A stretch of DNA of 64,000 bases from an uncultured Gammaproteobacteria bacterium (GCA_964636275.1 CAZWRN010000001.1:22070-86069); one strand, 5' to 3'. Positions 1 through 26,760 are shown, counted from the first letter of the stretch. Numbers and translations are program-made. Notes: generated from the letters alone by a model not told the origin.

Positions 1-13
1 TGTTGTTAATAAA

Positions 14-286
14 ATGAATGCTGGTGACCCAACAGGGGCTACTGGAGTCAATACCCTCTTAAGTACTGTAGTGAGTCTTTTTTTTGTATTTGCTGGGATA
101 GTATTTGTAATTATGGTGGTTTGGGGTGCGGTAGATTTTATTATCTCTTTTGGCGAAAAGGACGCAATTGGAAAAGCACGGCAAAAAATCACTTGGGCTA
201 TTATTGGAGTCATAATATTATCACTGGTCTTTGTTTTACTTCGGATTGTTGAGAGGCTGACAGGATTAACATTTATTATTAGCTAA
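14..286 (+). CDS. Small double-TM pilin-like protein, paralog 1 (VirB2/TrbC-like topology)
   Basis: 90 aa with two hydrophobic helices flanking the conserved loop WGAVDFIISFGEKDAIGKARQK; the motif is shared with five downstream paralogs; the N-terminus may be cut by the window edge. Confidence 0.45.
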   Translation: MNAGDPTGATGVNTLLSTVVSLFFVFAGIVFVIMVVWGAVDFIISFGEKDAIGKARQKITWAIIGVIILSLVFVLLRIVERLTGLTFIIS

Positions 287-287
287 T

Positions 288-743
288 ATGAAATTATTGA
301 TACTAATTGTTTTGACTCTGACCATTTTTGCCCAGCTGGCTTTGCCTGTCCATTCGGCCGCCCAGATTGGAATCAAACAACCTACTACTGGTGGAGGAAT
401 TCAGGTAGGAAAAAACGATGCTGACACTCTCTTATCCACAGTGATTCGAAATATAATCACCTTTGTTTTTACTTTTGCCAGTGTTGCTTTAGTACTCGTC
501 TTTATGTGGGGATCTGTTGACTGGATTATTTCTGGGGGTGACAAAGACAAAGTGAGTGCTGCTAGAAAAAAGATCACTGCAGCTATCACGGGCTTTATCA
601 TTTTGTCGCTTAGTTTCTTCTTTATAAGTGTGATTGGTGTGATGTTTGGGATAAATCCATTTCAAGGACTTAAAATCCCCTTTCTTGGGGAAGCTGCAAC
701 CATTGGTAATCCGCAACGTCCGACAGGGGGTAATGTCCAATGA
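288..743 (+). CDS. Small secreted double-TM pilin-like protein, paralog 2
   Basis: Signal peptide MKLLILIVLTLTIFAQLALPVHSAAQ; TM1, loop WGSVDWIISGGDKDKVSAARKK, TM2; starts 1 nt after the upstream gene. Confidence 0.5.
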   Translation: MKLLILIVLTLTIFAQLALPVHSAAQIGIKQPTTGGGIQVGKNDADTLLSTVIRNIITFVFTFASVALVLVFMWGSVDWIISGGDKDKVSAARKKITAAITGFIILSLSFFFISVIGVMFGINPFQGLKIPFLGEAATIGNPQRPTGGNVQ

Positions 744-1147
744 AACAAAAAAAGATTATTTTACCCTTTTTATTAGCTCTTCTTATATTTAATCCACTTT
801 CAGCCCAAGCTTTTGATATAACTGTTCCAAATACAATAACCCAACCTGTAACAAACTCTCAGGCAGCCAGCCAAGGAGTTGGCTCAATGATCAGCAACGT
901 AATCACATTAATTTTTTCTTTCTCCGGGGTGGCAGTAGTTTTGTATTTTTTATGGGGAGCCTTTGACTGGATTATGTCTGGAGGTGATAAAGAAAAAGTT
1001 GGAAATGCGAGGAAAAAGATGACTACTGCCATAATCGGTTTACTTTTACTCTCACTTACTTTCGCAATTATGGGTATCATCAGCCAACTCACATCAGTGA
1101 ATATATTGGGAGATCTGACACTTCCCCGATTTGGAGCAAACAACTAG
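740..1147 (+). CDS. Small secreted double-TM pilin-like protein, paralog 3
   Basis: Signal peptide ending AQA; loop WGAFDWIMSGGDKEKVGNARKK between two TM helices; overlaps the upstream stop by 4 nt. Confidence 0.5.
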   Translation: MKQKKIILPFLLALLIFNPLSAQAFDITVPNTITQPVTNSQAASQGVGSMISNVITLIFSFSGVAVVLYFLWGAFDWIMSGGDKEKVGNARKKMTTAIIGLLLLSLTFAIMGIISQLTSVNILGDLTLPRFGANN

Positions 1148-1595
1148 GATGATGAAAATAATAACCATTTTTTTAGCTCTGTCATTATTTATATTCCCGG
1201 TATCTGCCTGGGCGCAAACAAACTCTAAACAAAATAATGCAGGAAGCACCTTTAGAATAAACCAACCGACAGGTTATGGTGTCCAAATTGACGGGACAGC
1301 TGACAATATTATTGGCGTTTTGGTCAAAAATGCCATAATTCTGATTTTTTCTTTTTCAGCTTTAGGAGTTATTGCCTATTTTTTATGGGGAGCTTTTGAC
1401 TGGATTGTTTCTGGTGGAGATAAAGAAAAAATTAACTCAGCCAGAAAAAAAATGACTCATGCTTTGTTTGGTTTAGCTATTCTTTCATTGTCGTTTGTGA
1501 TTATTACTGTTGCTGGAGAGATTGTAGGTTTTAATCCGTTGAAAGAGCTATTATTCCCAGCACTTGGTGATCAATCCTCAACCGTGACTCCTTAA
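1131..1595 (+). CDS. Small secreted double-TM pilin-like protein, paralog 4
   Basis: Signal peptide; loop WGAFDWIVSGGDKEKINSARKK between two TM helices; the true start is possibly the MMKII Met a few codons in. Confidence 0.5.
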   Translation: MEQTTRMMKIITIFLALSLFIFPVSAWAQTNSKQNNAGSTFRINQPTGYGVQIDGTADNIIGVLVKNAIILIFSFSALGVIAYFLWGAFDWIVSGGDKEKINSARKKMTHALFGLAILSLSFVIITVAGEIVGFNPLKELLFPALGDQSSTVTP

Positions 1596-1654
1596 ACTAA
1601 GTAATATAACGCCATTTTTTTGCTTTCTAGAGTATCTTATAGTATAATATAGGC

Positions 1655-2719
1655 ATGTTTAATTCTAGTTTAAATTGCCTAAAAACCTCTCTAACCGGTC
1701 TAATTTTGTCCGGAGTTATATTTAGTGTTTTCGCTTATCCAATCCAGATATCGGCGGATAGTATTACATGGGAACCGGGATACGAAAGTACTTTTGAGAG
1801 TGGCTCAACCCCTACCCCAGCCAACCCCCAAGGTCAAAACTGGATATTTAATCCTATCCGCCAGGTTGGACAAAATACTCAGTTTGGAGGCTATGATCCA
1901 ATTCGAACTGTCGGCAACAACTCAACATTTAATACATATGAGCCGATCAGAACTGTTGGCAATAACTCCACTTTCAATACTTATGAACCGATTCGGACTG
2001 TAGGACAGACCACCACTTTTGGCAGTTACGAACCAATTCGTGCTGTGGGACAAAATACTCAATTTGGAACCTACGACCCTATTAGACGGGTTGGTCAGGC
2101 GACTCGATTTGGGTCCTATGATCCTATTAGACAAGTAGGTCAAAATACCTCATTTGGCGCTTACGATCCAATCCGCCAGGTTGGACAGAATACTCAGTTT
2201 GGAAATTATGATCCTATCCGCCAGGTTGGACAAAATACTCAGTTTGGAAATTATGATCCGATCAGAACTGTCGGACAATCAACCAGTTTTTCAAGCTATG
2301 ACCCCATCCGCCGTGTAGGTCAAAATACCTCATTTGGCGCTTACGATCCAATCCGCCAGGTTGGACAGAATACTCAGTTTGGAAATTATGATCCGATCAA
2401 AACTGTGGGACAAAATAACGCAGCGCCGGCTTACAACCCGATTGTGATACCAAATCTGGAAAACAATCCATATCGATACAATGCTATTCAGGTGCCAAAT
2501 ACTGGTAACTCGGGTGTGACGTACAATCAACCGGTGGTTCCAGCTGCTGGAAGCAATAACCCGGCTTACAACCAACCATTAATTCCACCTACTGGAAATA
2601 GTTCTACGACTTATAATCAGCCGGTCGTCCCCACAGCTTCGACACAGCCCCAGGTAATTGTGGTTGATCCTTCAACATATAGTAGTATTCGTGAACTACC
2701 TAAAACAGGCCTTCGCTAA
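1655..2719 (+). CDS. Secreted tandem-repeat protein (about 13 x 16-aa YDPIRxVGQNTxFGx units) with a C-terminal LPKTG
   Basis: N-terminal signal/TM segment; highly regular 48-nt repeats in the sequence; Pro/Asn-rich tail ending ELPKTGLR; embedded within the pilin paralog array. Confidence 0.6.
   Translation: MFNSSLNCLKTSLTGLILSGVIFSVFAYPIQISADSITWEPGYESTFESGSTPTPANPQGQNWIFNPIRQVGQNTQFGGYDPIRTVGNNSTFNTYEPIRTVGNNSTFNTYEPIRTVGQTTTFGSYEPIRAVGQNTQFGTYDPIRRVGQATRFGSYDPIRQVGQNTSFGAYDPIRQVGQNTQFGNYDPIRQVGQNTQFGNYDPIRTVGQSTSFSSYDPIRRVGQNTSFGAYDPIRQVGQNTQFGNYDPIKTVGQNNAAPAYNPIVIPNLENNPYRYNAIQVPNTGNSGVTYNQPVVPAAGSNNPAYNQPLIPPTGNSSTTYNQPVVPTASTQPQVIVVDPSTYSSIRELPKTGLR
1850..2445 (+). repeat. In-frame tandem 48-bp repeat array inside the CDS
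   Basis: Near-identical units, e.g. gatccaatccgccaggttggacagaatactcagtttggaaattatgat recurs at about 2164, 2212 and 2347; the larger block 2112-2215 is duplicated at 2300-2397. Confidence 0.85.
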
Positions 2720-2748
2720 TCTCGAGGTATTGACAAGGTTGTTTCTTC

Positions 2749-3165
2749 ATGATTATGATTAATTCAATCATGAAAAAGCTTTCTGCCGCTTTTGCTTCTG
2801 TCGCTGGATATTTCACATTAGCTTCTTCTGCTTTGGCACTTCAAGTAAACACACCAACTAATATGGGTATTGATCCAAAGACAGCTCCTAGTACTATTTT
2901 GACAAGCGCTTTAACTATCGTTTATATCGTTGCAGCACTGCTTGTTCTCTATTTTTTGATCATGGGAGCTTTTAAATGGATCACCTCTGGTGGTGACAAA
3001 GATGCTATCGGAAAAGCTCGCGGCGCTATCATAAATGCTTTGATTGGTCTGGCTATATTAGCTTTGGCTGTAGTGATAGTCATAGTTGTTGGAAAGATCT
3101 TGAATATTAATATTTTGGGCAACTTCACTATCCCCAACCTGATGGGTACTGCAACCGACATTTAA
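2749..3165 (+). CDS. Small secreted double-TM pilin-like protein, paralog 5
   Basis: Signal peptide; loop MGAFKWITSGGDKDAIGKARGA between two TM helices. Confidence 0.5.
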   Translation: MIMINSIMKKLSAAFASVAGYFTLASSALALQVNTPTNMGIDPKTAPSTILTSALTIVYIVAALLVLYFLIMGAFKWITSGGDKDAIGKARGAIINALIGLAILALAVVIVIVVGKILNINILGNFTIPNLMGTATDI

Positions 3166-3320
3166 TGTCGGTAAATTCTAAGCACTAAATCCTAAACTCG
3201 AGATAAATCTAATACATAAATTCTAAATACAAAACTATTTTTGAAATTGTTATTTTGATATTTGAATTTGTCTAGAATTTAGGATTTCGATATTAGAGTT
3301 TATTATGTTACTCTTATTAC

Positions 3321-3635
3321 ATGAGTCCTACTCCTTCGATAAACTTAGGTCCTGAACCGGCAGGAATTGCCCAACTTGAGCAGCTTTTCTCCCGCATAGT
3401 TTATTTATCTGCTGGGATAGCATTTATGGCACTCACAGTAATGTTGGTATATGCAGCAATCAGATTTCTTACCTCTGGTGGAGACAAGAAAACGATCCAA
3501 TCAACCTGGGCTGTTATCACTTGGGCATTTCTAGGAATTTTTTTCATGGGTCTAGCCTGGGCTATTCTTCTTTTAGTAAAAAGCTTTACCGGTGTGGATG
3601 TTCTAAATTTTAGACTTGCATTCCCCCAGACTTAA
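3321..3635 (+). CDS. Small double-TM pilin-like protein, paralog 6 (divergent, no obvious cleavable signal)
   Basis: Loop IRFLTSGGDKKTIQSTW between two hydrophobic helices; same family motif SGGDK. Confidence 0.45.
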   Translation: MSPTPSINLGPEPAGIAQLEQLFSRIVYLSAGIAFMALTVMLVYAAIRFLTSGGDKKTIQSTWAVITWAFLGIFFMGLAWAILLLVKSFTGVDVLNFRLAFPQT

Positions 3636-3672
3636 GTTGAAAAAGATAACTCAGTAAGTTACTCTATTCTTA

Positions 3673-5184
3673 ATGCCTTTTATATCCCGAAAATTCTTTT
3701 TCAATTTTAAATCTAAAGTATGCCTGATATTTACATTGGGTCTTTTTATTTTTGGTAGCTGTGCGACCCCAGCGCTAGCTCAAAATAGCCCCGCATCAAC
3801 TCAATCTACGCAACAAGTTTTAAATTCACTTTTAAACTCATTTGCCGGCTGTATGATTATCGGACAAAGCCTGATTGAAACAGAAGAGTGTCCTACCCAG
3901 TCAGGCTCTCAAAGCTCTAACCATCCAAATAGCGGGATGGGGCTGGTCGGTAAGGCTATTTCATTGACCTACAATCCTCCTCTTTCCACTCAGGCCTATC
4001 TGGCAGACGTTAAAGAGAGTTTGGGCTTTGCCAAACCGGCTTATGCCCAATCTGTGACAGGCACAGGTGAGAGTGTAATTGCTCCTGTTAAAAAACTCTG
4101 GCAGATAACACGAAATTTCTCTTATCTGATTTTTACCTTGATATTTGTAGGTATAGGCGTGATGATCATGCTGCGGCGAAAACTAAATCCGCAAACAGTA
4201 CTAAGTGTTCAAAGCGCTTTGCCAGGGCTGGTGATAGGGCTGATATTGATCACATTTAGCTATCTGATTGCCGCTTTGATAGTTGATTTGTCTTTCTTAC
4301 TAATTCCGCTTGTCGCAAGTGTTTTTGAGCAGGCTGGAGGGAATATTTTCAAGGAAAATGGTCAGACTTTGCAGGATTTCGCTCTAAATTCGACAGTCTT
4401 CTCTTTTTTTAAACCGGTTTTTTGGAATCATCCAAACTGGCCATTGGATCTTGATCTTTTGAAAGGAACCCCTCCGGGGTCTGTTACTAGAGAGCAGTTT
4501 TCAATCCCCAACTTAATCCCATATCTTATCCAATTGGCTATTGATGCTGTTCTGGGTCTGGGTAATTTATTGATAATGGTAATCGTTGTCATCGGATTGT
4601 TTTTTCAGATGATTCGTTTACTATGGATAATTTTGAGATCCTATATCTCTATTTTAGTTTTTACTGTTTTGGGACCATTATTGATTTTAATGTCCACAAT
4701 ACCAGGTCGTGGAAAATCAGTCGAATTTTGGTGGAGAAATCTACTAGGAAACGCTTTAATCTTTCCGGCTATATTTGCAGCCTTCTTTTTTGGGGGGATG
4801 ATCTTGTCGGATACTGGTGTGGATCAAAACGCTTTTAACCAGACATTGCCGCTATTTGCCGGTATACCTGTTTATCTGTTAAAATATGTTATAGGATTTG
4901 CCATTATATTGGGCGTTCCTGCGGTACCACAAATGGTTAAAGAAACAATCGGAGTCAAGGATATTAAAGGAATCCCAGAAGCCGCCATGGCTGGCTTTGG
5001 TGCGGGAGTTGGACCAATGCAACAGGGTTTAAAACAAGCCTACAAACCATTTGAAACAGAAAGACAAGCATTTAGAGAAGCAAAAATGCGTTCGATGTTC
5101 CCATCCGACAAAACAACTTTTGATACCATGATGGCAAGTAAATCTTCACGGCCTCGCTGGTACACTCGTTGGTTTAATAAATAG
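3673..5184 (+). CDS. Polytopic membrane protein, VirB6/TrbL-like candidate
   Basis: 503 aa; signal peptide, about 130-aa extracytoplasmic domain, then 5-6 TM helices and a charged C-terminal tail; positioned directly after the pilin array as in T4SS loci; no motif-level proof. Confidence 0.4.
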   Translation: MPFISRKFFFNFKSKVCLIFTLGLFIFGSCATPALAQNSPASTQSTQQVLNSLLNSFAGCMIIGQSLIETEECPTQSGSQSSNHPNSGMGLVGKAISLTYNPPLSTQAYLADVKESLGFAKPAYAQSVTGTGESVIAPVKKLWQITRNFSYLIFTLIFVGIGVMIMLRRKLNPQTVLSVQSALPGLVIGLILITFSYLIAALIVDLSFLLIPLVASVFEQAGGNIFKENGQTLQDFALNSTVFSFFKPVFWNHPNWPLDLDLLKGTPPGSVTREQFSIPNLIPYLIQLAIDAVLGLGNLLIMVIVVIGLFFQMIRLLWIILRSYISILVFTVLGPLLILMSTIPGRGKSVEFWWRNLLGNALIFPAIFAAFFFGGMILSDTGVDQNAFNQTLPLFAGIPVYLLKYVIGFAIILGVPAVPQMVKETIGVKDIKGIPEAAMAGFGAGVGPMQQGLKQAYKPFETERQAFREAKMRSMFPSDKTTFDTMMASKSSRPRWYTRWFNK

Positions 5185-5197
5185 AATACTGAGTGCT

Positions 5198-8119
5198 TCA
5201 ACCTTTTACAAATGCCTGCATTGTAGCCGCTAGCTGCTTTAAAACGCCTTCCAAAAATCCGCTAAAAAGACCTCTTTTATTGGTTTTCTCATACAGATCC
5301 CTCATAAATTGATATAAATCATTACCCAAATACTCCCTATTTAGTCGTTCGGACTCATGGTGAGCTACCATATGTGATAATGTCAATTTTCTGTTTAATA
5401 ATTCTAGTTGATTCCAATTTAGATTATTGAAATCATATTTCTCAGAATGCTTAGTCCGGAATTCAAAAATTCCTCTGGCGAGAGAACCTATAAATTCGTT
5501 CAACTCGTTTGCGCCATGGTGGTCATCAAACTCAGTTAAAGCTAATGAAGCTTTGAAAAACTCTCCCAAGGTTTTTATAATCTGGTCTGGTGTTTCCATA
5601 GCATGAAAATCATAGAGTAGTCTTGGCCCAGATTTATCAAACATGCCCTGGACTTTTTCCATGGCATTCCAGCGGCCGGTATTATATTTGATTCGATTGA
5701 AAAAACGGTCCCATTCTTCGGCCAGCTGAGCATTTGTTCCCAACTGGAAAAACTGCTGAATTGTAACTGTATTTACATAGCCATATTTTCTTAGCTCCTT
5801 AAAGCGACCTGGATTTAACTCACCGTCATTCCAATAATCAGCTGGCTTATGATGAAGCTTTTTCTTGTCTCGCGCTCCTCTTCCACCAATTGATGCATTA
5901 AAATCGATCAAATGGGCGTATCTCTCATAGATCATTCGCTGATGATCTGCCCAGGCTTTGGCTAATTCACCACTTCTTTCCCTGGCCAATTTCTGAGCAA
6001 TCTTTTTTCTTTTCTTCACTTCGGGTGTGTCATTTGGTGACTCGGGCATCATATCTTGAGCCAAATGGAGTGTGATTTTGTTTCCTGAAAACATTTTTTT
6101 GCTACCAGTTTCAGGGTCAATTTCTCTTGTGTCATCGTCATACCATTCAAAAACCGGATCAAAAACAACAGCATCTCCGGCGACGTTTTCATAGCCGAAT
6201 TGCTCAATTCCTCCTTTTAATTCTTCTGGTATTGCTACGCCTTTTTTCCACTTTAGACCATCAAAATCAGCTGACTGACCAGAAGCATGATGGATCTTTT
6301 CGGCAATCACAAAGGCTCGATTGAGATGTCCAAAGACCTGTTCAATATCCTCAAGGTGAATATTACTTAGTGTATCAGGATCTAAATTTTCAACTTCAGC
6401 GCTCTTGAGATTGCGCTCCAGTACGAATTTGGCCTTTTTTGCCTCATGCACTTTCTCTAATTCAGGCTTTATTTCCTCTCTTAGTGCTGGTGTTAATTCA
6501 TTTCTTAACTCGGCAATTCTCTCCTGCCGCTCTTCATCGGTGTAAGCCGGTTTCCCTTCCAGATTTCTGCGAGCATTTTCCTCGTTGATTTTACTTGCTG
6601 TTCTAGCTGGTAAAGCTTCTTCTACTTTTTCCTTTAGTTCAATGGGGAACTGATCTGCAATTTCCCTTGTATAGGCAAAATATTCTGAAATAGTTTTCGT
6701 TACTATTTTTTTACCTGAAGCATCCATTAATAATTTTGCTTTTTCAGGATTTCCTTCCTCTCCTTCTTGTTTTATTCTATTTATTGCACGATGAGCTGAA
6801 TGATACTTATCAAGTGCATCACTGGTAATCATATAATTCATTCCATGAATCATTAATCCTCTATATTTTGTTCTTGCAGCTTCTACTTTTTTCTTTGCTT
6901 CATTTATATCAATTGACTGGTAGTACTTTTTGAGAGCTTGATCATATTGATATTCCTGAAAAACACCTTCATCAGAGTAGAATTTAGTTTTATCGGGAAA
7001 GTCGGTCAATCCCGCAATCTTAAATACATCCGTCATCCCTAAGAAATCTTTTGGTTTTTTATCTTCTCCAACTCCAAAATCATCCCACATTTGATCGATC
7101 AGTTTGATTTTTTGTCTGAGTGTCCAGGTATCTTCTTTTTCTTTATTAGTTAAATTTGCTCCATCAACAATTTTATTTACCAGATTCTGATCTTTTATAC
7201 CTTCATCTTTGACCCGGTAATAATGGCCTCTGGCTCTTGATGGGGTATCTGCATCATCATTCCAACCTTCAAGTAAATCTGATGCCTGCTGGACACCGGC
7301 CTCTCTCATTAATGCTTTTAAATGTCGTCCACGGATATTGGTAATACCACTACCCCATTGTTCACATTTCAAATATTTTGCTGCAAACGCCACATTGTGA
7401 GTGATCTGCCGAGCCTCAATCCAGTTGGAGATCTCAGATCGAAAAGATTCATACTGGGGCTCAGCAAAGACCACGTTTATATATTGCAACATCTCACCAA
7501 CACCTGGAGCCTCACCAGCCTCATCAATGTCAAGAGTTGCTAAAATATTATTTACACGTTGTCTCAATTTACCAAATTGGCGATTTTGTTTATAGTATTC
7601 AAGCTCCTGATAAATATTGTAAAAAGATTGTTCTCTTCCCTCATTGGCCACTGACTCTCTATACGCATCTACTTCAGCTTGGGGAAACCCTTTTGCGGCA
7701 TTTTGATCACGATCCCATTGTTTTTTTTCCTCTTCTCCCCGCATCGGATCAGGCGGAGTTTCTGGAGTTACATTGTCCTCAGGTCGGTGATGTCCAGAGG
7801 TTTCTGCTGATTCATCTGTATCCTCTGCGCCCCCTGCTACTCTAAAAATAGGTTTGCCTGATCTGGTAAAAAGTGTTCCTGGTGGATAATCGGCTGGATT
7901 GGGTTTTTCAGTATTTTTAGGATTTTCTGCACTGCTACGTTTTTGCCCGGTTGCCCATCCTTCGGTTCCTGGCCAAATAGGACGGCCCTTTTCAGTAAAT
8001 TTTGTTCCTGGTGGATAAGGTGACTTTTTTTCAAAATCAGAAGGCTTACTCCCTGAAGGAGCACTTTCGGGTCCTGTTCCTGGTGGTGTACCATCGGCCA
8101 TATTTTTGTCAAAGGCCAT
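5198..8119 (-). CDS. Large (973 aa) hydrophilic acidic protein of unknown function
   Basis: Long uninterrupted ORF with no TM; N-terminal duplicated motif YPPGTKFTEKGRPIWPG / YPPGTLFTRSGKPIFRV; lysine/glutamate-rich; no recognisable catalytic motif. Confidence 0.6.
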   Translation of the reverse strand: MAFDKNMADGTPPGTGPESAPSGSKPSDFEKKSPYPPGTKFTEKGRPIWPGTEGWATGQKRSSAENPKNTEKPNPADYPPGTLFTRSGKPIFRVAGGAEDTDESAETSGHHRPEDNVTPETPPDPMRGEEEKKQWDRDQNAAKGFPQAEVDAYRESVANEGREQSFYNIYQELEYYKQNRQFGKLRQRVNNILATLDIDEAGEAPGVGEMLQYINVVFAEPQYESFRSEISNWIEARQITHNVAFAAKYLKCEQWGSGITNIRGRHLKALMREAGVQQASDLLEGWNDDADTPSRARGHYYRVKDEGIKDQNLVNKIVDGANLTNKEKEDTWTLRQKIKLIDQMWDDFGVGEDKKPKDFLGMTDVFKIAGLTDFPDKTKFYSDEGVFQEYQYDQALKKYYQSIDINEAKKKVEAARTKYRGLMIHGMNYMITSDALDKYHSAHRAINRIKQEGEEGNPEKAKLLMDASGKKIVTKTISEYFAYTREIADQFPIELKEKVEEALPARTASKINEENARRNLEGKPAYTDEERQERIAELRNELTPALREEIKPELEKVHEAKKAKFVLERNLKSAEVENLDPDTLSNIHLEDIEQVFGHLNRAFVIAEKIHHASGQSADFDGLKWKKGVAIPEELKGGIEQFGYENVAGDAVVFDPVFEWYDDDTREIDPETGSKKMFSGNKITLHLAQDMMPESPNDTPEVKKRKKIAQKLARERSGELAKAWADHQRMIYERYAHLIDFNASIGGRGARDKKKLHHKPADYWNDGELNPGRFKELRKYGYVNTVTIQQFFQLGTNAQLAEEWDRFFNRIKYNTGRWNAMEKVQGMFDKSGPRLLYDFHAMETPDQIIKTLGEFFKASLALTEFDDHHGANELNEFIGSLARGIFEFRTKHSEKYDFNNLNWNQLELLNRKLTLSHMVAHHESERLNREYLGNDLYQFMRDLYEKTNKRGLFSGFLEGVLKQLAATMQAFVKG

Positions 8120-8288
8120 AAAAGGCTACCCGTTTGTCAGTACTCTAGTACCTATCCATCTTTTTTATTAGTTTAACTAAAGAAGGAAACGACTAGTGAG
8201 AGTATTATATACCCTATAGCCTATTAAAGCAACTTTCTGACTCCATCGTAACGTGCTTATAAAAAATAGTCAAACTTCAAATACCTAA

Positions 8289-9704
8289 TTGGGTCAGACG
8301 TATGATACTCTTATATATATGACCGGACCGGAGACTGCAGAACGCAATCACAATCGAGATATCCTCATGATGCAGATCCGCAATCCAGCTACACGGGAGA
8401 CCCTCAAAAGGGAGATACCAGCGGATTCAAGGGTGGATTATTCTGGAGGAGGATCTAGGAATGAAACTCTCAGTGCGCTGGCTACTTTAGCGCGAGTTGA
8501 AAAAGGTGATATATATAAATATATTTTGGGAATAGCCACAGTAGCTGAGTCCCCTGATCAGCTGGCTAATGCATTTGGAGCTATTAGAGCTTTGGCCGAT
8601 TGGAAAAATAGCGGGAAAGATCGAGCTGGTACGATAGCAGCAGCCCAAAAAGATTTTCTATCCCGTTCTTCACCACCTATGCATATCACTGATGAGGCAA
8701 AAGATCTAATAAGAATTTTTAAGTCTGCTTGGGACCAATCTCGAGGTGATGAACGCTTTGCAATACGAAGTATTCGAAGCACACTTATGAGTCGCCAAGG
8801 TGAAGCTCAAAGAAATTACGAAAATCATTTTGCCGAAGCTTATTTAGCTAGTATTATGGATGATTCATTACCCGAAGGGCTTCGGCAAGCCGTGTTGAAT
8901 AGTGGGTATATGTTTGACTTGGGATCCCCTCCTTATTTAAATGAAAATGAACGTCGATTTGATACTAGAGCCAGTTTTTGGACCCAAGCCAAGCCAGCCT
9001 GGGTTTTCCCAGAGATTTTTGGATCGGGGACACGTCCGGAAGATCGTTTAGATCCAAAAGATGCAGAAATTGTCAATTTAAAAAAAGAGATAGATAGGCT
9101 TCGTCGACGTCCACCAGCAGCCGATCCAGCACAAGAAGCGCGATTCCGAGCTACAGAAAGAGAAAATACGACTCTAAAAGGACAGCGGGATCGTTTGACT
9201 AAAGAAAATAATGATTTAATAAATATGAATAATCAGCTTAGAACTAAAATTGCTGAACTAGAACGTCTTCGCGGAGCTGCCCCCTCACCCGATGCTTCTC
9301 GAAGAATAAGTGAGCTAATGATGCAGGTGCAGCAACTAGAAGCAGATAAAAAATCACTCCAAGAATCTAATCGTCAAAAGGACACTGACTTAAGACGCGA
9401 AAGGGATGCAAGAGCCGCGGCAGAAAGAGAAGCCGCCAGAGCCAGAGCCGACCGTCGGTCAGGCAGACCCTCTCCATTTGAAGTTTTAGGGATAACTGAC
9501 CGTTTGGCCTGGGATCGAGCTGACATGGCTGGGAAGAGACGGATTTTAGACCTTGCTAGTCGGCCACTACGTATGAAGTATCATACCGATATGCATGTAG
9601 AAGCAGCGAAAAATCCTGTAATTAAGGAGTTATTGGATCGTGAGCTGGTAAAAATAAACTTAGCAGTGGAAGAGCTGGAGAAACAGGCGGGTCTAAGAAA
9701 ATAG
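8289..9704 (+). CDS. Coiled-coil protein with a C-terminal J-domain-like module (HTD variant of HPD)
   Basis: The C-terminus PFEVLGITDRLAWDRADMAGKRRILDLASRPLRMKYHTDMHVEAAKNPVIKELLDRELVKI fits the J-domain pattern (YxxLGv..a..eIkkaYr.l..kyHPD); the central region is heptad-like and charged. Confidence 0.5.
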   Translation: MGQTYDTLIYMTGPETAERNHNRDILMMQIRNPATRETLKREIPADSRVDYSGGGSRNETLSALATLARVEKGDIYKYILGIATVAESPDQLANAFGAIRALADWKNSGKDRAGTIAAAQKDFLSRSSPPMHITDEAKDLIRIFKSAWDQSRGDERFAIRSIRSTLMSRQGEAQRNYENHFAEAYLASIMDDSLPEGLRQAVLNSGYMFDLGSPPYLNENERRFDTRASFWTQAKPAWVFPEIFGSGTRPEDRLDPKDAEIVNLKKEIDRLRRRPPAADPAQEARFRATERENTTLKGQRDRLTKENNDLINMNNQLRTKIAELERLRGAAPSPDASRRISELMMQVQQLEADKKSLQESNRQKDTDLRRERDARAAAEREAARARADRRSGRPSPFEVLGITDRLAWDRADMAGKRRILDLASRPLRMKYHTDMHVEAAKNPVIKELLDRELVKINLAVEELEKQAGLRK

Positions 9705-9742
9705 CTTTGACATTTGTTTTTGAATGTGACAACAATTGATTT

Positions 9743-10081
9743 ATGCATCAGACAATTCATCAATACAGAGAGCAGATCCTGCAAAAAACATATGACGTCA
9801 TGACCCAGGCTGTTGAAAATGGGACACTCCAAGAAGAAGACATCTCACCAATGGCAGATTTTATTTTAGAGAGAGTTGATAAACTCACCACATATGATCA
9901 GGTAATCGGTTTTTTTCATTTACTAGCTTTGAAATGGCCTATCTTCTCCTCTTTATCTGTCGAAACAGAGGGTAAGCTGCAGGAAAAAGTTGAATCTCAT
10001 GTAAGAGATAGTATGTTATCATTGATAAAGGAAGGAAAGGTTGACGAAGCTGTCCAAATAGGACAGGCTTTGCATAAATAA
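9743..10081 (+). CDS. Hypothetical small protein
   Basis: 112-aa ORF tightly linked (1-nt gap) to the downstream gene. Confidence 0.4.
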   Translation: MHQTIHQYREQILQKTYDVMTQAVENGTLQEEDISPMADFILERVDKLTTYDQVIGFFHLLALKWPIFSSLSVETEGKLQEKVESHVRDSMLSLIKEGKVDEAVQIGQALHK

Positions 10082-11920: not shown

Positions 11921-11922
11921 AT

Positions 11923-13969: not shown

Positions 13970-15193
13970 ATGGAACCTGTCTTTCAAGCCCATCCTATAC
14001 CGCAAAATGTGACCAACTTTGAATTTCATTTGGTGGGAGATATGACCATCAAGCAGTTTGGGTATCTGGCTTTGGGACTAGTAATCGCTTTTGTGACGTT
14101 TATCGGACTTGCTTCTTCTTTTCCCTTTATAGCCTATCCTATTATAGTTATTTCAGCAGCAACTGGGGCGGCTTTTGCTTTTATTCCGATTCAAGAAAGG
14201 CCTTTAGATCATTGGGTAGGTGCATTTTTTAAGGCGATCTTTCATCCCACCAAACTGACCTATCAGTCAAAAATTTTAAAAAAAGAGGATCCTTTTTTTT
14301 CGAGAAGATTGTCGCTTTATATCCAAAACAAACACCGAAATCAGGCAGCTAAGTCACTTAGCACCCTGGCTTTAAAGCCAGTGAGCCAAAACCCTTCCGC
14401 CCCACCTTCGAATATGCCTTTATCAAGCACCAGAAAGCCTTCAATGGCTGATCGTCTTTTGTCCGGAGTTCAAACTACAGCTCAGGCACAGCCTGCTTCC
14501 CAGCCTGCAGCGCCTGTTTCACTGGGGACAGTTCCGGCAAGCCCGGTGGTAAAAGAACCACCCAAGCCAACAGATCTGAAGAAAACGGTTGACCTAGCAA
14601 AAGACGCCCAAGAAACTCAGAGTAAAATTTTAAAAATAGAAAAGCAGCTGGAACAGATCAAAGCAACCGTTGCTCAACCAGGAATTGATGCCAAAATATA
14701 TATCGATCAGTTTCAATCGCTGCTGGGAGATTTGCAAAAACTAAATGAACACGCTTCTGGTACCGCCCATGATTTGGCGATCCTGGCCAACTCCCCTGCT
14801 GCTGCAGCCCCCTCAGCTACACCGCCAGCCACAAATACTAGCGAGCCTAAGCCTCAAGTAAGTCCTCAACCAGCTCCCCCAAAAACAGTTCCTTCGGTCA
14901 CTTTGACAACGTTTCCCAATGTAGTAAATGGAGTCGTGACTGACAGCCAGGGCAACTATGTTGAAGGAGCTATTGTGGTTGCACATGACAAACAAGGATT
15001 ACCAGTCCGGGCTTTGCGAAGCAACAAACTGGGACAGTTTGTTGCAGCTACCCCCTTATCCAATGGTATCTATACTATTGTGGTTGAAAAAGACTCGATG
15101 GTCTTTGACAAAGTAGCAGTTGAACTAAAAAATGAAATCCTCCCTCCAATTTTGGTAGCCGCCCGTAAACAACTGCCCGGAGGTACAGCCTAA
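13970..15193 (+). CDS. PrgI/VirB3-like two-TM N-terminal domain fused to a Pro/Ala-rich linker and a C-terminal carboxypeptidase-regulatory-like beta-sandwich
   Basis: N-terminus NVTNFEFHLVGDMTIKQFGYLALGLV plus two TM helices then ERPLDHW, typical of PrgI-family proteins that precede VirB4; the C-terminus VTDSQGNYVEGAIVVAHD...GIYTIVVEKD resembles the CarboxypepD_reg fold. Confidence 0.5.
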   Translation: MEPVFQAHPIPQNVTNFEFHLVGDMTIKQFGYLALGLVIAFVTFIGLASSFPFIAYPIIVISAATGAAFAFIPIQERPLDHWVGAFFKAIFHPTKLTYQSKILKKEDPFFSRRLSLYIQNKHRNQAAKSLSTLALKPVSQNPSAPPSNMPLSSTRKPSMADRLLSGVQTTAQAQPASQPAAPVSLGTVPASPVVKEPPKPTDLKKTVDLAKDAQETQSKILKIEKQLEQIKATVAQPGIDAKIYIDQFQSLLGDLQKLNEHASGTAHDLAILANSPAAAAPSATPPATNTSEPKPQVSPQPAPPKTVPSVTLTTFPNVVNGVVTDSQGNYVEGAIVVAHDKQGLPVRALRSNKLGQFVAATPLSNGIYTIVVEKDSMVFDKVAVELKNEILPPILVAARKQLPGGTA

Positions 15194-15997
15194 ATGAGTG
15201 CAACGCAAGATTTTTTACCAGTAGAAGACATCCGCGATGATGTAGTGGTGATGAAAGATGGCTCAATGGCGATCGTACTACAAACATCAGCCGTCAATTT
15301 TGATCTACTTTCTGAAACAGAGCAGTTAGCAATTATTGGATCATTTGCAGCTCTTTTAAATTCCCTCTCTTTTTCAATCCAAATAGTAATCCGCTCAAAA
15401 AGACTCGACATATCCAACTACATTCATCTGCTGAAGGATGCCGAGGCTTTGCAAAAAAATCCGCTATTACAAGCGATGATGCAACATTACCGGCAATTTG
15501 TCACCAATATTATTCGAAATAACGAGGTGCTGGATAAACAGTTTTTTGTGGTCATATCAGTTTCTTATTTAGAACTTGGGGTGGTGAAAGATGTGAATAA
15601 AAACTTTGAGAAAGGATTAACCCTACTCTCTCCCAGACGGGATCATATCATGCGTCAGTTGGGGAGGATTGGTCTTAAAACAACCCAGCTGAATACTGAT
15701 AAACTGATAGCGCTTTTTTATGACTATTACAACGATACTTTTAAATCCAGTTTCAAATCAGCTGGGGCTTCATCAAAAACAACGGCTCCATCGCCAACAC
15801 CACCTGCAGTTGCCCCCCAGCCAGTCAAACCGTCCCAGACACCAACAATCACGCAAATGGCGCCAGCTCCCCAGCCCGCACCAGTACAACCAGTATCTCA
15901 GCCAATAACCAATCCGGCTCCACAGACACAGCCTAAACCAGCGGGAGTCCCTCTCAATCGCAATGTGCCATTTGCTGTGGAGGAGTTGGGAGCCTAA
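15194..15997 (+). CDS. VirB4/TrbE N-terminal domain as a separate ORF with a Pro-rich tail (split VirB4 or pseudogene fragment)
   Basis: LPVEDIRDDVVVMKDGSMAIVLQTSAVNFDLLSETEQLAIIGSFAALLNSL parallels the VirB4 N-terminus (LPY..HL.D.IVLLEDGSI..I.RV.GV.FEL.E..E...); the tail is APSPTPPAVAPQP...; the start is 1 nt after the upstream stop. Confidence 0.5.
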   Translation: MSATQDFLPVEDIRDDVVVMKDGSMAIVLQTSAVNFDLLSETEQLAIIGSFAALLNSLSFSIQIVIRSKRLDISNYIHLLKDAEALQKNPLLQAMMQHYRQFVTNIIRNNEVLDKQFFVVISVSYLELGVVKDVNKNFEKGLTLLSPRRDHIMRQLGRIGLKTTQLNTDKLIALFYDYYNDTFKSSFKSAGASSKTTAPSPTPPAVAPQPVKPSQTPTITQMAPAPQPAPVQPVSQPITNPAPQTQPKPAGVPLNRNVPFAVEELGA

Positions 15998-16086
15998 AGA
16001 ATAAACCAATAAACAAATAACCCAATGTCAAATTCCCAATTATTGAGAATTTGTTTATTTGAATATTGGATTATTTGTATATTTAT
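15998..16086. repeat. CCAAT-rich imperfect palindromic element (copy A), between the VirB4 N-terminal ORF and the VirB4 ATPase ORF
   Basis: aataaaCCAATaaacaaataaCCCAATgtcaaattCCCAATtattgagaatttgtttatttgaatATTGGattatttgtatattt; related copies at 24414-24470, 24581-24629 and 25086-25165. Confidence 0.7.
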
Positions 16087-16089
16087 AGT

Positions 16090-17880
16090 ATGAACTTACC
16101 TTTTAGCAGTAATAAAAAAAGTTATGCGTCAAATATTAAAGGGACTGCGGCTGAAGCACCGAAAGATCCTAGTGTGAATGGACAAACTTTTAGTTTAGAT
16201 GACGCCATTGCTCCCAAAGAGATCGAAATTGATTTTAGTTATCTACGAATGGATGACAAATACTACCGATCTTTTTTCGTCTCAGGTTATCCCCGCTATG
16301 TTGAACCAAACTGGCTTGAGCCGCTGATTAGTTTTGAACACTCACTAACTCTATCGATGTTTATTTATCCATCATCCAGTAAGAATATTTTGGATGATCT
16401 GAAAAGAAAGATCGCCGAGATGGAGGCTACTATTCAGACAGATATGGAGCGTGGCCGAGCAATAGATCCGGCTGTTCAGGTTGCTTTGGATGATGCTAAA
16501 TCACTCCAAGAACAGTTGGTTAAAGGGGCCGAAAGGTTTTTCCGGCTAGGACTTTATGTCACAGTCCCCTCTTCCAATCTTGAAGAGTTAAACAATATTT
16601 CCAAACTTGTTGAATCAACATTGGGATCTTTATCTATTCAACCTCGGGTGATGACCCTTCAGATGGCTGAAGCTTTTAACGCCACAATGCCGATCGATCG
16701 GGATATTTTAAAGCTCAATCACAACATGGACACAACATCCCTAGCGACAACTTTCCCGTTTACAACTTCAGAGCTGACTTCAGAAACGGGTATTATTTAT
16801 GGCATCAATGAACACAATGGCTCTTTGATTATTTTTGACCGTTTTTCATTGGAAAATGCTAATTCGGTGATTTTTGCTAAGTCCGGATCTGGTAAGTCCT
16901 ACTTTGTCAAACTCGAGGCTTTACGCTATATGATGTTTGGTTCGCAGGTGATTGTGATTGATCCTGAACATGAATATTTAAAGCTCTGTCAGGCTGTGGG
17001 AGGGCAATATATAGATTTTTCATCAGAGTCTCCGGTCAAGATAAATCCCTTTGATCTATCCAATGTCACAGAAGAGGGAGAAAATGAGCTGGGAAGAAAG
17101 ATTCTGACACTTACCGGATTTTTAAAACTCGTCTTGGGCCAGTTGGACGCTTCTCAGCAGGCAATTTTAGACCGGGCTTTGATTACAACGTATCGCCTCA
17201 AAGGAATAACCCAGGACCCAAAAACACAACATTTACCGCCACCATTAATGGAAGATCTCTATAAAGTACTGGTGGGTATGGAAGACAAAAGTGCCCAGGA
17301 GCTGGCTTATCGCCTAGAACGATTTATTAAAGGATCATTAGCTGGTATTTTTAGTGCTCCCTCTAATATTAACTTGAACAATCAGCTGATTGTTTTTTCG
17401 GTTCGTGATTTGGCAGATCAGTTGAGGCCTCTGGCGATGTATCTGATATTGGATTATATCTGGACCAAGATCAGACGAGAGATCTCCAAAAGATTGCTGA
17501 TCGTAGATGAGGCCTGGTACATGATGCAAAATGAGGATTCAGCTGAATTTTTGGTAGGTATAGCCAAAAGAGCCCGCAAATATTATTTAGGAGTTACTAC
17601 AATTACCCAGGATGTGGAAGACTTTTTAGGAACAGATCGTGGAAAGGCGATTATATCCAACTCTTCGATTCAGATATTACTTAAACAAGCTCCGGCCTCT
17701 ATTGGAAAAGTAGCTGAAACTTTTAATTTATCTGATGGGGAAAAATTGTTGTTGCTCTCAGCTGGAGTAGGACAAGGACTCTTCTTTGCCGGACAAACCC
17801 ATGTCGCGATGAGTGTAGTTGCTTCTCCAGAAGAACATCGACTGATCACCACCAATCCGTCTGAAGTGTTTAAGAAATAA
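16090..17880 (+). CDS. Type IV secretion ATPase, VirB4/TrbE/CagE family
   Basis: Walker A VIFAKSGSGKSYFVK, Walker B LLIVDEAWYMM, upstream GYPRYVEPNWLEPLI signature of the CagE_TrbE_VirB domain; start chosen at MNLPF (16090) because the track start lies inside the repeat element. Confidence 0.8.
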   Translation: MNLPFSSNKKSYASNIKGTAAEAPKDPSVNGQTFSLDDAIAPKEIEIDFSYLRMDDKYYRSFFVSGYPRYVEPNWLEPLISFEHSLTLSMFIYPSSSKNILDDLKRKIAEMEATIQTDMERGRAIDPAVQVALDDAKSLQEQLVKGAERFFRLGLYVTVPSSNLEELNNISKLVESTLGSLSIQPRVMTLQMAEAFNATMPIDRDILKLNHNMDTTSLATTFPFTTSELTSETGIIYGINEHNGSLIIFDRFSLENANSVIFAKSGSGKSYFVKLEALRYMMFGSQVIVIDPEHEYLKLCQAVGGQYIDFSSESPVKINPFDLSNVTEEGENELGRKILTLTGFLKLVLGQLDASQQAILDRALITTYRLKGITQDPKTQHLPPPLMEDLYKVLVGMEDKSAQELAYRLERFIKGSLAGIFSAPSNINLNNQLIVFSVRDLADQLRPLAMYLILDYIWTKIRREISKRLLIVDEAWYMMQNEDSAEFLVGIAKRARKYYLGVTTITQDVEDFLGTDRGKAIISNSSIQILLKQAPASIGKVAETFNLSDGEKLLLLSAGVGQGLFFAGQTHVAMSVVASPEEHRLITTNPSEVFKK

Positions 17881-17940: not shown

Positions 17941-18303
17941 TTAGTAACTTTTCCATTTATCTCTTAAATTTACAATCTTTCCTCCCACTAACTCATATCG
18001 CTTAATTAGTTCGCTACATTTCTCTTGATCTAGATACTTCAAATCTTTTGCTATATTTAAATGTACTTCCATCTCATTACAGGATCCCAATGCTCTATCT
18101 AGTGATACCTTGAATTCTTTCTCAAAGCGTCTTTTCGCCCATCCTTCAGCAATATTTGCAGGAGGAGACTTAGTACATCTTCTCATTTGAGAAGCCAGAT
18201 CATTCTTTTCAAAAGATGGAAGCAATACACACAACTTCATTACTTCGATAGCCAACTCATAACATTCTTTATATACATCTAAATCCTTGAAGCTCTGAAT
18301 CAT
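17941..18303 (-). CDS. Four-helix-bundle protein (23S rRNA intervening-sequence protein family)
   Basis: FKDLDVYKECYELAIEV...LPSFEKNDLASQMRRCTKSPPANIAEGWAKRRFEKEFKVSLDRALGSCNEMEVHLNIA matches the family pattern (DL.VW.kA..L......LP..E...L..Q.rRaa.Si..NIAEG..R...keF..fL.iA.GS..E....L). Confidence 0.65.
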   Translation of the reverse strand: MIQSFKDLDVYKECYELAIEVMKLCVLLPSFEKNDLASQMRRCTKSPPANIAEGWAKRRFEKEFKVSLDRALGSCNEMEVHLNIAKDLKYLDQEKCSELIKRYELVGGKIVNLRDKWKSY

Positions 18304-24409: not shown

Positions 24410-24413
24410 AATG

Positions 24414-24470
24414 GAATAAACCAATAACCCAATAGACAAATAAACCAATTCTTGAATTAAGAATTCGCTG
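24414..24470. repeat. CCAAT-rich element, copy C (left arm), abutting the dnaN start
   Basis: aataaaccaataacccaatagacaaataaaccaattcttgaattaagaattcg. Confidence 0.6.
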
Positions 24471-24580
24471 TTTTTGGATAATTGTTTAAAGTGTTTTTTG
24501 GTAATTTTTCAACCGCTTTAAGAACTTCAACAACGAATTCAAAAATTCTTTCATATATATCGTGTTTATATTCATTATTC

Positions 24581-24629
24581 GCCATTTGTTTATTGGGTTA
24601 TTTGTATATTTGTTTATTCAGTAAATGGC
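24581..24629. repeat. CCAAT-rich element, copy D (right arm, ATTGG orientation)
   Basis: gccatttgtttattgggttatttgtatatttgtttattcagtaaatggc, closely matching the right arm of copy A. Confidence 0.6.
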
Positions 24630-24633
24630 AGAT

Positions 24634-25113: not shown

Positions 25114-25165
25114 TGCCCAATTTCCAATTATTGGAGTCTGGTTTATTTGGAGATTTGTTTATTAG
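25086..25165. repeat. CCAAT-rich palindromic element, copy B
   Basis: aataatCCAATaacccgataaaCCAATgcccaatttCCAATtattggagtctggtttatttggagatttgtttatt, alignable with copy A over about 80 bp. Confidence 0.7.
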
Positions 25166-25169
25166 GCTA

Positions 25170-26729: not shown

Positions 26730-26741
26730 GAGGCCAATACT

Positions 26742-26760
26742 AGTGGATAAGTTGTCCACA
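26742..26760. promoter_or_regulatory. Two DnaA boxes immediately upstream of the dnaA start (autoregulatory candidate)
   Basis: agTGGATAAgTTGTCCACA: TTATCCACT (26742-26750) and TTGTCCACA (26752-26760). Confidence 0.6.

Follow-up and report, generated by a model that had tools for sequence, protein, structure and literature searches.

Tandem PF18895 pilin-family genes beside T4SS genes on a putative Microgenomatia-type chromosome

What is the function of a row of small, diverged membrane proteins encoded beside the genes of a T4SS, and are its members interchangeable? An ORF scan of the 64-kb window (the whole stretch of DNA analysed) identifies six paralogous small ORFs, all on the + strand between positions 2 and 3635 (14-286, 288-743, 740-1147, 1131/1149-1595, 2749/2770-3165 and 3321-3635). 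These copies, c1 to c6, align with one another at 21-48% identity, confirming the array of six small paralogues described in a first-pass annotation of this DNA. The array and its neighbourhood are composed as follows.

2..286, + strand: c1, pilin-like copy 1, 5' end cut by the window edge; PF18895 34.4 bits; loop SFGEKD.
288..743, + strand: c2, 151 aa; PF18895 30.7 bits; N-terminus ..VHSA/A, two TM helices, loop SGGDKDK.
740..1147, + strand: c3, 135 aa; PF18895 29.0 bits; N-terminus ..AQA/F, loop SGGDKEK.
1149..1595, + strand: c4, 148 aa from ATG 1149; N-terminus ..AWA/Q, loop SGGDKEK.
1655..2719, + strand: non-pilin insert, a secreted 354-aa repeat protein that ends ELPKTGLR-stop.
2730..2759, + strand: sigma-70-like promoter match directly 5' of c5, TTGACA-18-TATGAT, 11/12.
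2770..3165, + strand: c5, 131 aa from ATG 2770; PF18895 30.5 bits; weaker signal-like ..ALA/L, loop SGGDKDA.
3321..3635, + strand: c6, 104 aa; PF18895 31.9 bits; short N-terminus with GPEPAG; loop SGGDKK.
3673..5184, + strand: VirB6-like polytopic membrane protein, 503 aa, the array's conserved downstream partner.
13970..15193, + strand: PrgI (VirB3-like) with a C-terminal CarboxypepD_reg domain; PF12666 E 5.9e-10.
15194..15997, + strand: TrsD-like, resembling the N-terminal part of VirB4/TraC; PF11130 TraC_F_IV E 2.4e-4, below cut-off.
16066..17880, + strand: VirB4-like ATPase, the signature T4SS motor; PF19044 P-loop_TraG E 4.9e-33, AAA_10 E 5e-12.

How far does the array extend? The ORF of c1 has no in-frame stop 5' of position 14. 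In near-identical contigs (98.4-99.2% identity to the window) full-length c1 measures 111 aa (L001 4393-4728), and upstream of it lie three further family members, u1, u2 and u3. The array therefore has nine members, and the earlier count of six holds for the window, whose edge cuts c1. Nor are the six genes strictly consecutive, as had been stated: the repeat protein interrupts the run between c4 and c5, and a 155-nt gap precedes c6. The several overlaps of 1-4 nt reduce to one, the 4 nt (740-743) shared by c2 and c3, when ATG starts are used; two other neighbouring pairs are spaced by 1 nt. For c4 a TTG at 1131 offers an alternative start, and the gene callers applied to L001 picked the 148-aa form. 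An alternative ATG for c5 lies at 2749, and its orthologues begin at MKK. The c2 protein is found identically on 8 metagenome contigs.

To which family do these proteins belong? Scored independently, five of the six copies pass the gathering score of PF18895 (T4SS_pilin; 26.6 bits) with E-values of 2e-8 to 1e-6. The remaining copy, c4, falls below it (17.4 bits, E 5e-3), yet shares 48% identity with c3, its nearest paralogue, and is recovered by the family HMM with an E-value of 3e-48. Judged by sequence, these matches lie far beyond chance. PF18895 is matched by 41 of 41 aligned homologues as well, and an HMM built from homologues, run over the 64-kb window, matches exactly the six copies and nothing else. 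The first-pass annotation, which could tie the loop motif to no named family, thus missed an existing one, and the Pfam search it proposed returns this pilin family, not a non-pilin family. Sequence searches give no link to TrbC/VirB2 (PF04956): none of 41 family members matches at E <= 0.01, and none of the six copies at E <= 0.1. A PDB sequence search gave no match for the pilin-like copies, and tblastn detected no plasmid homologue of them.

The two-helix, VirB2/TrbC-like topology stands. Hydropathy places two hydrophobic helices in every paralogue, and the AlphaFold model of c3 is a confident helical hairpin (helices 39-79 and 84-118; block-mean pLDDT 95-98 over residues 61-110). As is typical of PF18895, a short, polar, basic loop separates the two TM helices; across all nine paralogues the net charge is +1 to +3 in the loop and -3 to +1 in the outer segments. 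The loop itself is less invariant than claimed. Across the six copies S, G and K alone are invariant, c1 reading SFGEKD, while GGDK is invariant in an alignment of 41 sequences (copies 2-6 plus homologues, with c1 left out). Because this polar motif is kept throughout, the PF18895 signal reflects more than hydrophobic composition. In the alignment of the six, the exposed N-terminal segments are the most variable part.

A signal peptide had been assigned to every copy except c6, or to every copy outright. A heuristic based on hydrophobicity and motifs, used in place of SignalP, assigns a hydrophobic N-terminus with a subsequent AxA-type site to c2, c3, c4, c5, u1 and u3, and detects no signal-like N-terminus in full-length c1, c6 or u2. 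The call for c6 is therefore upheld, but c6 is not the sole such copy. Three members of nine without a signal peptide is a trait unlike classical VirB2/TraA. Member u1 carries a cysteine-rich ectodomain of ~340 aa.

Do the surrounding genes fit a pilin? The product of 3673-5184 has a polytopic helical fold, structurally VirB6/DotA-like; it does not match PF04610 (TrbL/VirB6), and among 49 homologues there is a single match (E 0.008). Of 80 related loci, 54 contain this VirB6-like gene. Its immediate 5' neighbour is a pilin gene in 52 of 53 loci, and in 44 of 52 loci that last pilin gene is of the c6 type. Nothing specific supports c6 as a scaffold or regulator, as had been suggested; what it occupies is this last position before the VirB6-like gene. 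The array lies ~10 kb from the PrgI/VirB3-, TrsD- and VirB4-like genes and ~20 kb from dnaN/dnaA (dnaN, dnaA, rnpA and yidC at 23-28 kb; dnaN and dnaA at 23297-26759). PrgI is found downstream of the array, within a 10-kb flank, in 12 of 80 related loci. The proteins are thus encoded, in the manner of VirB2, with VirB3, VirB4 and VirB6 homologues, and this context, together with family matches that all point to PF18895, upholds the view that they are secretion-system pilin paralogues. Of 59 ORFs scanned in the 64-kb window, none gave a Pfam match to a relaxase, coupling protein or sortase. The homologues that carry a taxon name belong to Ca. Daviesbacteria, Roizmanbacteria, Levybacteria and the Microgenomates group, and these names suggest a Microgenomatia-type chromosome of a Ca. 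Daviesbacteria-like Patescibacterium.

Arrays of this kind have been described. Quinonero-Coronel et al. (2025, Microb Genom, PMC12102498) found that 383 Patescibacteria assemblies carry VirB2-like arrays, each of 2-11 genes; these are most abundant in Microgenomatia and Saccharimonadia, often lie near dnaA and have a mean identity between members of 25% (maximum 54%). An array is defined there as at least two VirB2-like genes, in tandem or one non-pilin gene apart, in a Patescibacteria genome with VirB4; the same text calls TrsD adjoining VirB4 typical of Patescibacteria and VirB6 homologues scarce in Microgenomatia. Our locus has pilin genes in tandem with one intervening gene and VirB4 in the same genome. 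It shares with the published arrays the Pfam family, the low identity of members (21-48%), the chromosomal setting with VirB4, TrsD and PrgI/VirB3 near dnaA/dnaN, and a neighbourhood free of relaxase and coupling-protein genes, here within the 64-kb window. Since tandem PF18895 arrays beside Patescibacteria T4SS genes are already published, the six genes, real PF18895 members by sequence, add one more, unremarkable case to a known kind of array, whose function is putative. In Ca. Southlakia epibionticum ML1 the pilin series of the T4SS cluster is essential (Wang et al. 2023, Cell, PMC10633639; PMC12857230). That organism differs in species and class (Saccharimonadia), and its array has six members against nine here.

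Are the members equivalent? For each of u1, u2, u3, c1, c5 and c6, 16-56 other genomes hold homologues closer than any paralogue at home, whereas for c2-c4 this applies to just 1-5 genomes. The order recurs as u1, u2, u3, c1, c2-4 type (xN), [c5], c6, VirB6-like; the 44 complete spans contain 5-12 genes each, with 0 to 9 of the c2-4 type. As far as sequence comparison tells, most members are long-established orthologues that keep their place in the gene order, copy number varies only in the c2-4 type, and that type is a recent, lineage-specific expansion. Orthologues so old, fixed in position across dozens of genomes, point to differentiated structural roles. By far the most conserved copy is c5, with 96.4% identity to its orthologue in L009 (dN 0.019, dS 0.43) and 89% to that in L007; its dN values of 0.019 and 0.093 compare with 0.2-0.5 for the other copies, which are 43-71% identical to their L009/L007 orthologues and saturated in dS. 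Recent recombination, rather than high expression, could alternatively account for the low dS of c5 against L009. The positional orthology, the conservation of c5 with its own promoter-like site and the structurally VirB6-like neighbour are what this locus adds. Fixed orthology, variation confined to one subtype, a very conserved c5 and a VirB6-like neighbour are not met in the available text of PMC12102498 and PMC10633639.

How does the array compare with better-known systems? Like VirB2/TrbC/TraA (PF04956; T-pilus, F-pilus, pKM101, R388), its proteins are small and have two hydrophobic helices joined by a short basic loop, most with a leader-like N-terminus, and homologues of VirB3, VirB4 and VirB6 are encoded alongside. 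The R388 structure reportedly led to VirB6 being proposed as the platform on which pilins assemble; here the VirB6-like gene directly follows the array. Unlike VirB2/TrbC/TraA, the array proteins match neither PF04956 (0/41) nor any solved pilin by sequence, and number nine paralogues instead of one, three of them leaderless and one fused to a large ectodomain. In contrast to diderm T4SSs, the host here is monoderm and therefore lacks the VirB7/9/10 outer-membrane core. The known cases polymerise into an extracellular, T4SS-dependent filament with bound phospholipid, whereas this array is known from genes alone. Bartonella (Trw) and Anaplasma phagocytophilum likewise have diverged tandem VirB2-type genes, a T4SS for host interaction and not conjugation, and one subtype of varying copy number. 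These are diderm intracellular animal pathogens with PF04956-type proteins, whose paralogues presumably provide variation of antigens or receptors; unlike those variants, most members here are ancient and positionally fixed. The Mbov_0395 family (NF045849) of Mycoplasma ICEs, also a small two-helix protein of a monoderm, MPF-FATA-type (Tenericutes) conjugation system, is matched weakly by c1 (E 9.5e-5) and c3 (E 2.3e-5), at 22-24 bits against a curated cut-off of 40; it is encoded by one gene of a mobile element, not by a chromosomal array.

We favour, with moderate confidence, a reading in which the nine genes encode VirB2-like pilin hairpins of a chromosomal, origin-proximal T4SS of a Microgenomatia epibiont, assembling a pilus or conduit. 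The proteins would insert into the cytoplasmic membrane, most with a cleavable signal peptide and three without; we infer an orientation with the basic SGGDK loop toward the cytoplasm and both protein ends outward. Subunits would be recruited to the VirB6-like platform encoded directly 3' of the array, and the VirB4 ATPase, TrsD and PrgI/VirB3 would power their polymerisation into a pilus or conduit extending to the host bacterium that carries the epibiont. The members would not be interchangeable, u1, u2, u3, c1, c5 and c6 being old and fixed in order and the c2-c4 type expanding and contracting. Conjecturally, each may have a role of its own: c5, as the most conserved member and one with a strong promoter-like site to itself, is the candidate major subunit; u1 may form the tip or be an adhesin subunit; c6 might work beside the VirB6-like protein; and c2-c4 are possibly a diversifying, perhaps host-specific class.

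Could the proteins instead remain in the membrane? They might be parts of a T4SS translocon, or its assembly factors, around VirB6, VirB3 and VirB4, with no extracellular pilus and with a gene order that reflects a heteromeric inner-membrane complex. We hold this to be unlikely, although several observations agree with it. Gram-positive-type T4SSs generally lack a pilus (PMC10633639; PMC12102498), and in the literature searched we found no observation, solved structure or imaging of a pilus built of PF18895 proteins. Three members have no signal peptide, orthologues strictly fixed in position and closely tied to the VirB6-like gene suit stoichiometric complex subunits, and the links to proven pilins in fold and sequence are weak or not discriminating. 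However, nine differentiated hairpins, u1 with its large ectodomain among them, are hard to fit into a membrane core for which VirB3/6/8 suffice elsewhere, and a c2-4-type count of 0 to 9 between genomes is unlike core parts of fixed stoichiometry. Moreover, a hairpin with a basic loop and a putatively processed N-terminus is what VirB2 shows, and the name of the curated family is that of a pilin.

Or does the array generate diversity, its paralogues being alternative, interchangeable major pilins for antigenic variation or host-strain matching? This is the explanation favoured in the literature, PMC12102498 proposing, from the parallel with Bartonella and Anaplasma, that the arrays serve adaptation to host strains. 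We regard it as quite improbable for the array as a whole. The low identity of the paralogues, the recent lineage-specific expansion of c2-c4 and the variable, exposed N-termini speak for it, and the first-pass suggestion of antigenic or host-range variants accordingly fits c2-c4. It does not fit the six of nine members whose closer orthologues elsewhere keep their operon position and which are therefore long-lived, differentiated genes, nor c5, nearly invariant between close relatives. A switching mechanism, by inverted repeats, silent cassettes or a recombinase, is unsupported.

That these are chance ORFs or unrelated hydrophobic proteins (holins, bacteriocin-immunity or toxin-like peptides), with the pilin label an artefact of TM composition, is very improbable and effectively refuted: hydrophobic hairpins do draw spurious weak matches (SecY, Reticulon, QcrA_N, E 0.03-0.3), but five independent paralogues pass the PF18895 cut-off and all 41 homologues match it, the polar GGDK is invariant in 41 sequences, the VirB6-like and VirB4 genes stay linked to them in many genomes, and identical proteins are called on eight independent metagenome contigs.

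Might the pilus itself be heteromeric? A more elaborate form of the pilin reading divides the labour, with c5 as the shaft, u1 as tip adhesin, the leaderless u2, c1 and c6 as initiators or adaptors on the VirB6-like platform, and the rapidly expanding c2-c4 subtype setting host range. We put it forward tentatively, as doubtful but conceivable; if true, it would be the first T4SS pilus of a monoderm lineage. The LPxTG-ended repeat protein might then be attached to the pilus in the nearest relatives. This protein consists of 13-14 tandem 15-aa units (YDPIRxVGQNTxFGx), matches no Pfam family, and has orthologues only in L007 and L009, the two nearest genomes.

The site at 2730-2759, a consensus match alone, is the best sigma-70-like match in positions 1-5400, and the same sequence is kept in L009. 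If used, it would yield a nearly leaderless mRNA for c5.

Mutual alignment confirms six paralogous small open reading frames on the plus strand of positions 1–3635, with pairwise identities of 21–48%. The first-pass annotation, which had read them as six consecutive genes, thus recorded a real observation yet described it in part wrongly: the run is interrupted between the fourth and fifth copies by the gene for a secreted repeat protein. The features of the locus are as follows.

14–286, + strand: c1, small ORF, 5' end beyond the window edge
288–743, + strand: c2, small ORF
740–1147, + strand: c3, small ORF
1131/1149–1595, + strand: c4, small ORF with two alternative starts
1655–2719, + strand: secreted repeat protein, 354 aa, between c4 and c5
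2749/2770–3165, + strand: c5, small ORF with two alternative starts
3321–3635, + strand: c6, small ORF
3673–5184: VirB6-like polytopic protein, 503 aa, immediately after c6, without Pfam family
13970–17880, + strand: PrgI (VirB3-like), TraC-N-terminal/TrsD-like and VirB4 ATPase genes, ~10 kb downstream
23.3–26.8 kb: dnaN and dnaA, followed by rnpA, yidC and jag

How far does the array extend? The frame of c1 remains open upstream of position 14, without a stop codon, and c1 is therefore truncated at the window edge. An identical copy of the c2 protein is present on eight metagenome contigs, six of which are 98.4–99.2% identical to the window in their DNA. Samples that contain this strain include SRR31051132 and JGI 3300046786. 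On the near-identical contigs c1 is 111 aa long, lacks a signal peptide and follows three additional family members.

Contig L001 (99% identical to the window), 2277–3587: u1, first gene of the array, 436 aa; signal-peptide-like N-terminus, cysteine-rich ectodomain (~340 aa), pilin domain at the C-terminus
Upstream of c1 on near-identical contigs: u2, 132 aa
Upstream of c1 on near-identical contigs: u3, 118 aa

Because u1–u3 add to the six copies of the window, the array has nine members and not six. A family HMM, built from an alignment of 41 sequences, matched exactly c1–c6 in the 64-kb window and found no extra pilin copies elsewhere in it.

To which family do these proteins belong? The first-pass annotation had left their loop motif without a named family and had proposed a Pfam search. 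Its matches go to a pilin family, PF18895 (T4SS_pilin), whose curated cut-off of 26.6 bits is passed by five of the six copies (29–34 bits) and which is matched by all 41 aligned homologues. The sixth copy, c4, scores 17.4 bits, below the cut-off, and is 48% identical to c3. Matches to PF04956 (TrbC/VirB2) at E <= 0.01 were absent from the 41 homologues. Named homologues of the pilins and of the VirB6-like protein come from Ca. Daviesbacteria, Roizmanbacteria, Levybacteria, Gottesmanbacteria and the 'Microgenomates group', which identifies the source as a Patescibacterium of the class Microgenomatia; a species-representative collection yielded no genome of the same species, its best pilin identity being 54%. 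We are nearly certain that the locus is a PF18895 array belonging to a patescibacterial type IV secretion system (T4SS). Quinonero-Coronel et al. (2025, PMC12102498) used PF18895 together with other pilin profiles to search 3,035 Patescibacteria genomes, and report within-array identities with a mean of 25% and a maximum of 54%, compared to 21–48% here. The earlier pilin interpretation was right in kind, with both family and array type already known; PF18895 arrays in Patescibacteria are a published kind of feature, to which this locus adds nothing categorically new. In Southlakia epibionticum, with one strain tested so far, the T4SS including a pilin series is reported as essential for epibiotic growth (Wang et al., PMC10633639). 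Our literature search found no paper on a solved or imaged pilus of the PF18895 type.

Each of c1–c6 displays two strongly hydrophobic segments, between which lies a short loop of S-G-G-D-K-x-K...A-R-K-K type. Its net charge is +1 to +3, compared with −3 to +1 in the stretches outside the helices. Conservation is highest in the polar loop, and GGDK is invariant in the 41-sequence alignment (c2–c6 with database homologues), which argues that the resemblance is not an artefact of composition. The SGGDK loop, formerly taken as invariant, is less strict among the six window copies, where just S, G and K are fixed and c1 reads SFGEKD. Likewise, not every copy has a signal peptide. By a heuristic of hydropathy and AxA motif, c2, c3, c4, c5, u1 and u3 have signal-peptide-like N-termini and c1, c6 and u2 do not, as a rough check also indicates for the orthologues of these last three; for c6, the absence had been anticipated. 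AlphaFold models c3 as a helical hairpin (helices 39–79 and 84–118) behind a signal helix, with block-mean pLDDT of 95–98 over residues 61–110. A Foldseek search returned nothing at E <= 1e-3, and all PDB sequences, searched by profile with the six copies, gave chance SecY matches only (E about 0.2). The fold searches are compatible with conjugative pilins, without discriminating.

A weak likeness leads to the mycoplasmas. Below threshold, c1 (14–286; E 9.5e-5) and c3 (740–1147; E 2.3e-5) resemble the NCBIfam pilin-like conjugal transfer protein Mbov_0395, a Mycoplasma ICE protein. If real, this resemblance would place pilin-like hairpins in a monoderm MPF-FATA-type system, and it would bear on whether patescibacterial pilins were inherited with the T4SS or co-opted from diderms. 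A tblastn search with c3 matched none of 72,556 plasmids, and we therefore have no evidence that the array came from a plasmid or an ICE.

The surroundings are those of a chromosomal type IV secretion locus. Of 80 related loci, 54 have a homologue of the VirB6-like gene, which directly follows a pilin gene in 52 of 53 loci; weak PF04956 matches occur in 6 of 49 VirB6-like homologues. The N-terminal TrbC-like hairpin of the VirB6-like protein was considered as a tenth pilin domain and rejected, hhalign of the pilin alignment with the VirB6-like family having aligned signal peptides only (probability 10%). Further downstream, the PrgI/VirB3-like protein bears an extra C-terminal CarboxypepD_reg domain, and a separate TrsD-like ORF of 267 aa, similar to TraC/VirB4 in its N-terminal part, comes before VirB4, an arrangement that has been described from Patescibacteria. 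The cumulative GC skew turns at the dnaN/dnaA region, and the remaining window holds housekeeping genes, including groES/EL and a leucyl-tRNA synthetase-like gene. The 59 window ORFs scanned gave no match to a relaxase, a coupling protein or a sortase domain; according to the survey of Patescibacteria T4SS (PMC12102498), a relaxase is usually absent and the loci often lie close to dnaA/dnaN.

Between the VirB6-like gene and PrgI (5198–13371) lie five ORFs of 973 (−), 471, 112 and 612 (+) and 482 (−) aa, with no Pfam or NCBIfam match and poor conservation (0–3 of 80 related loci); the 973-aa protein is highly charged. Directly after VirB4, on the minus strand (17941–18303), is a 23S rRNA intervening-sequence protein gene (PF05635, E 5e-27); in 10 of the 80 related loci a homologue lies close to the pilin array. 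Rfam at gathering threshold yielded no tRNA, rRNA, RNase P RNA or riboswitch over the whole 64 kb, in contrast to the origin-proximal housekeeping context (dnaA, dnaN, rnpA, yidC).

Are the members interchangeable, or does each occupy a place of its own? A scan for [DEG]WIxSGGDK, with one genome per species, gave 214 relatives, of which 80 loci were fetched; these hold a median of 6 and a maximum of 12 family genes within ±10 kb. For u1, u2, u3, c1, c5 and c6, homologues closer than the home paralogues exist in 16–56 other genomes; the nearest relative of c2, c3 or c4 is another of these three, except in 1–5 genomes. Dozens of independently assembled genomes share the order u1-u2-u3-c1-(c2-4 type, N copies)-[c5]-c6-VirB6-like. 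The first pilin gene is of u1 type in 46 of 52 loci and the last of c6 type in 44 of 52; 44 complete spans contain 5–12 genes, and c2-4-type copies number 0 to 9 per locus. This 80-genome comparison suggests that the array consists of differentiated subunits in fixed positions and a single variable subtype, and that a VirB6-like platform comes next.

The most conserved member is c5. It is 96.4% and 89% identical to its counterparts in the two nearest genomes (dN 0.019 and 0.093); for the other pilin members and the VirB6-like protein identity is 43–71%, with saturated dS. Against L009, the genome with 96.4% identity, dS of c5 is 0.43, that of the flanking genes saturated, at more than 1.4. The best sigma-70-like site in 1–5400 (TTGACA-18-TATGAT, 11 of 12 matching) is directly upstream of c5 (feature 2730–3165) and kept in L009; the conserved start of c5 is MKK. 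A transcript from this site would be almost leaderless. The conservation could stem from strong selection combined with high expression, or from a recent recombination event.

In the diderm R388 system, VirB6 is the proposed platform at which pilin subunits are added under the action of VirB4. By analogy with this architecture and with the VirB2 paradigm, the pilin proteins would enter the membrane with the basic loop inside; the VirB6-like protein would then be the site where they polymerise into a fibre or conduit leading to the host cell, and the ancient members would have distinct roles. We consider it probable that the array works as such an extracellular filament. With much less confidence, c5 would be a candidate major subunit (shaft), u1 a candidate tip or adhesin, and c6, which adjoins the VirB6-like gene, a candidate initiator or adaptor, while the c2-4 type may diversify, perhaps with host range. 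The main rival, a set of components of a membrane-resident heteromeric translocon, seems unlikely. A model of interchangeable variants fits c2–c4 only; the antigenic or host-range variation once suggested for all copies would fit these but not the positionally fixed members. Patescibacteria account for a large part of bacterial diversity and apparently live attached to other microbes. The putative c5 shaft, u1 tip and c6 partner of VirB6 are candidates for structural and genetic work, and the VirB6-like neighbour may show where VirB6, reportedly scarce in Microgenomatia, resides.

The inserted repeat protein has no Pfam family, and its orthologues occur in the two nearest relatives only (L009, 3920–4780; L007, 8543–9691). 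It consists of 13–14 tandem 15-aa units (YDPIRxVGQNTxFGx), the number varying between strains. In all three genomes the C-terminus reads ELP[KR]TG plus 1–2 residues before the stop, an LPxTG motif at the extreme end without the hydrophobic/charged tail of a sortase sorting signal. An assembly error or frameshift after LPKTGLR was rejected, the two orthologues ending alike.

Many related loci (L007–L086) are third-party MAGs titled 'uncultured Gammaproteobacteria' or 'Pseudomonadales'; one bears the title candidate division TM6 (CP011212) and one Vitreimonas (a 1.4-Mb contig). All have typical Microgenomatia-type pilin arrays, and the titles look like mislabels or mis-binning.
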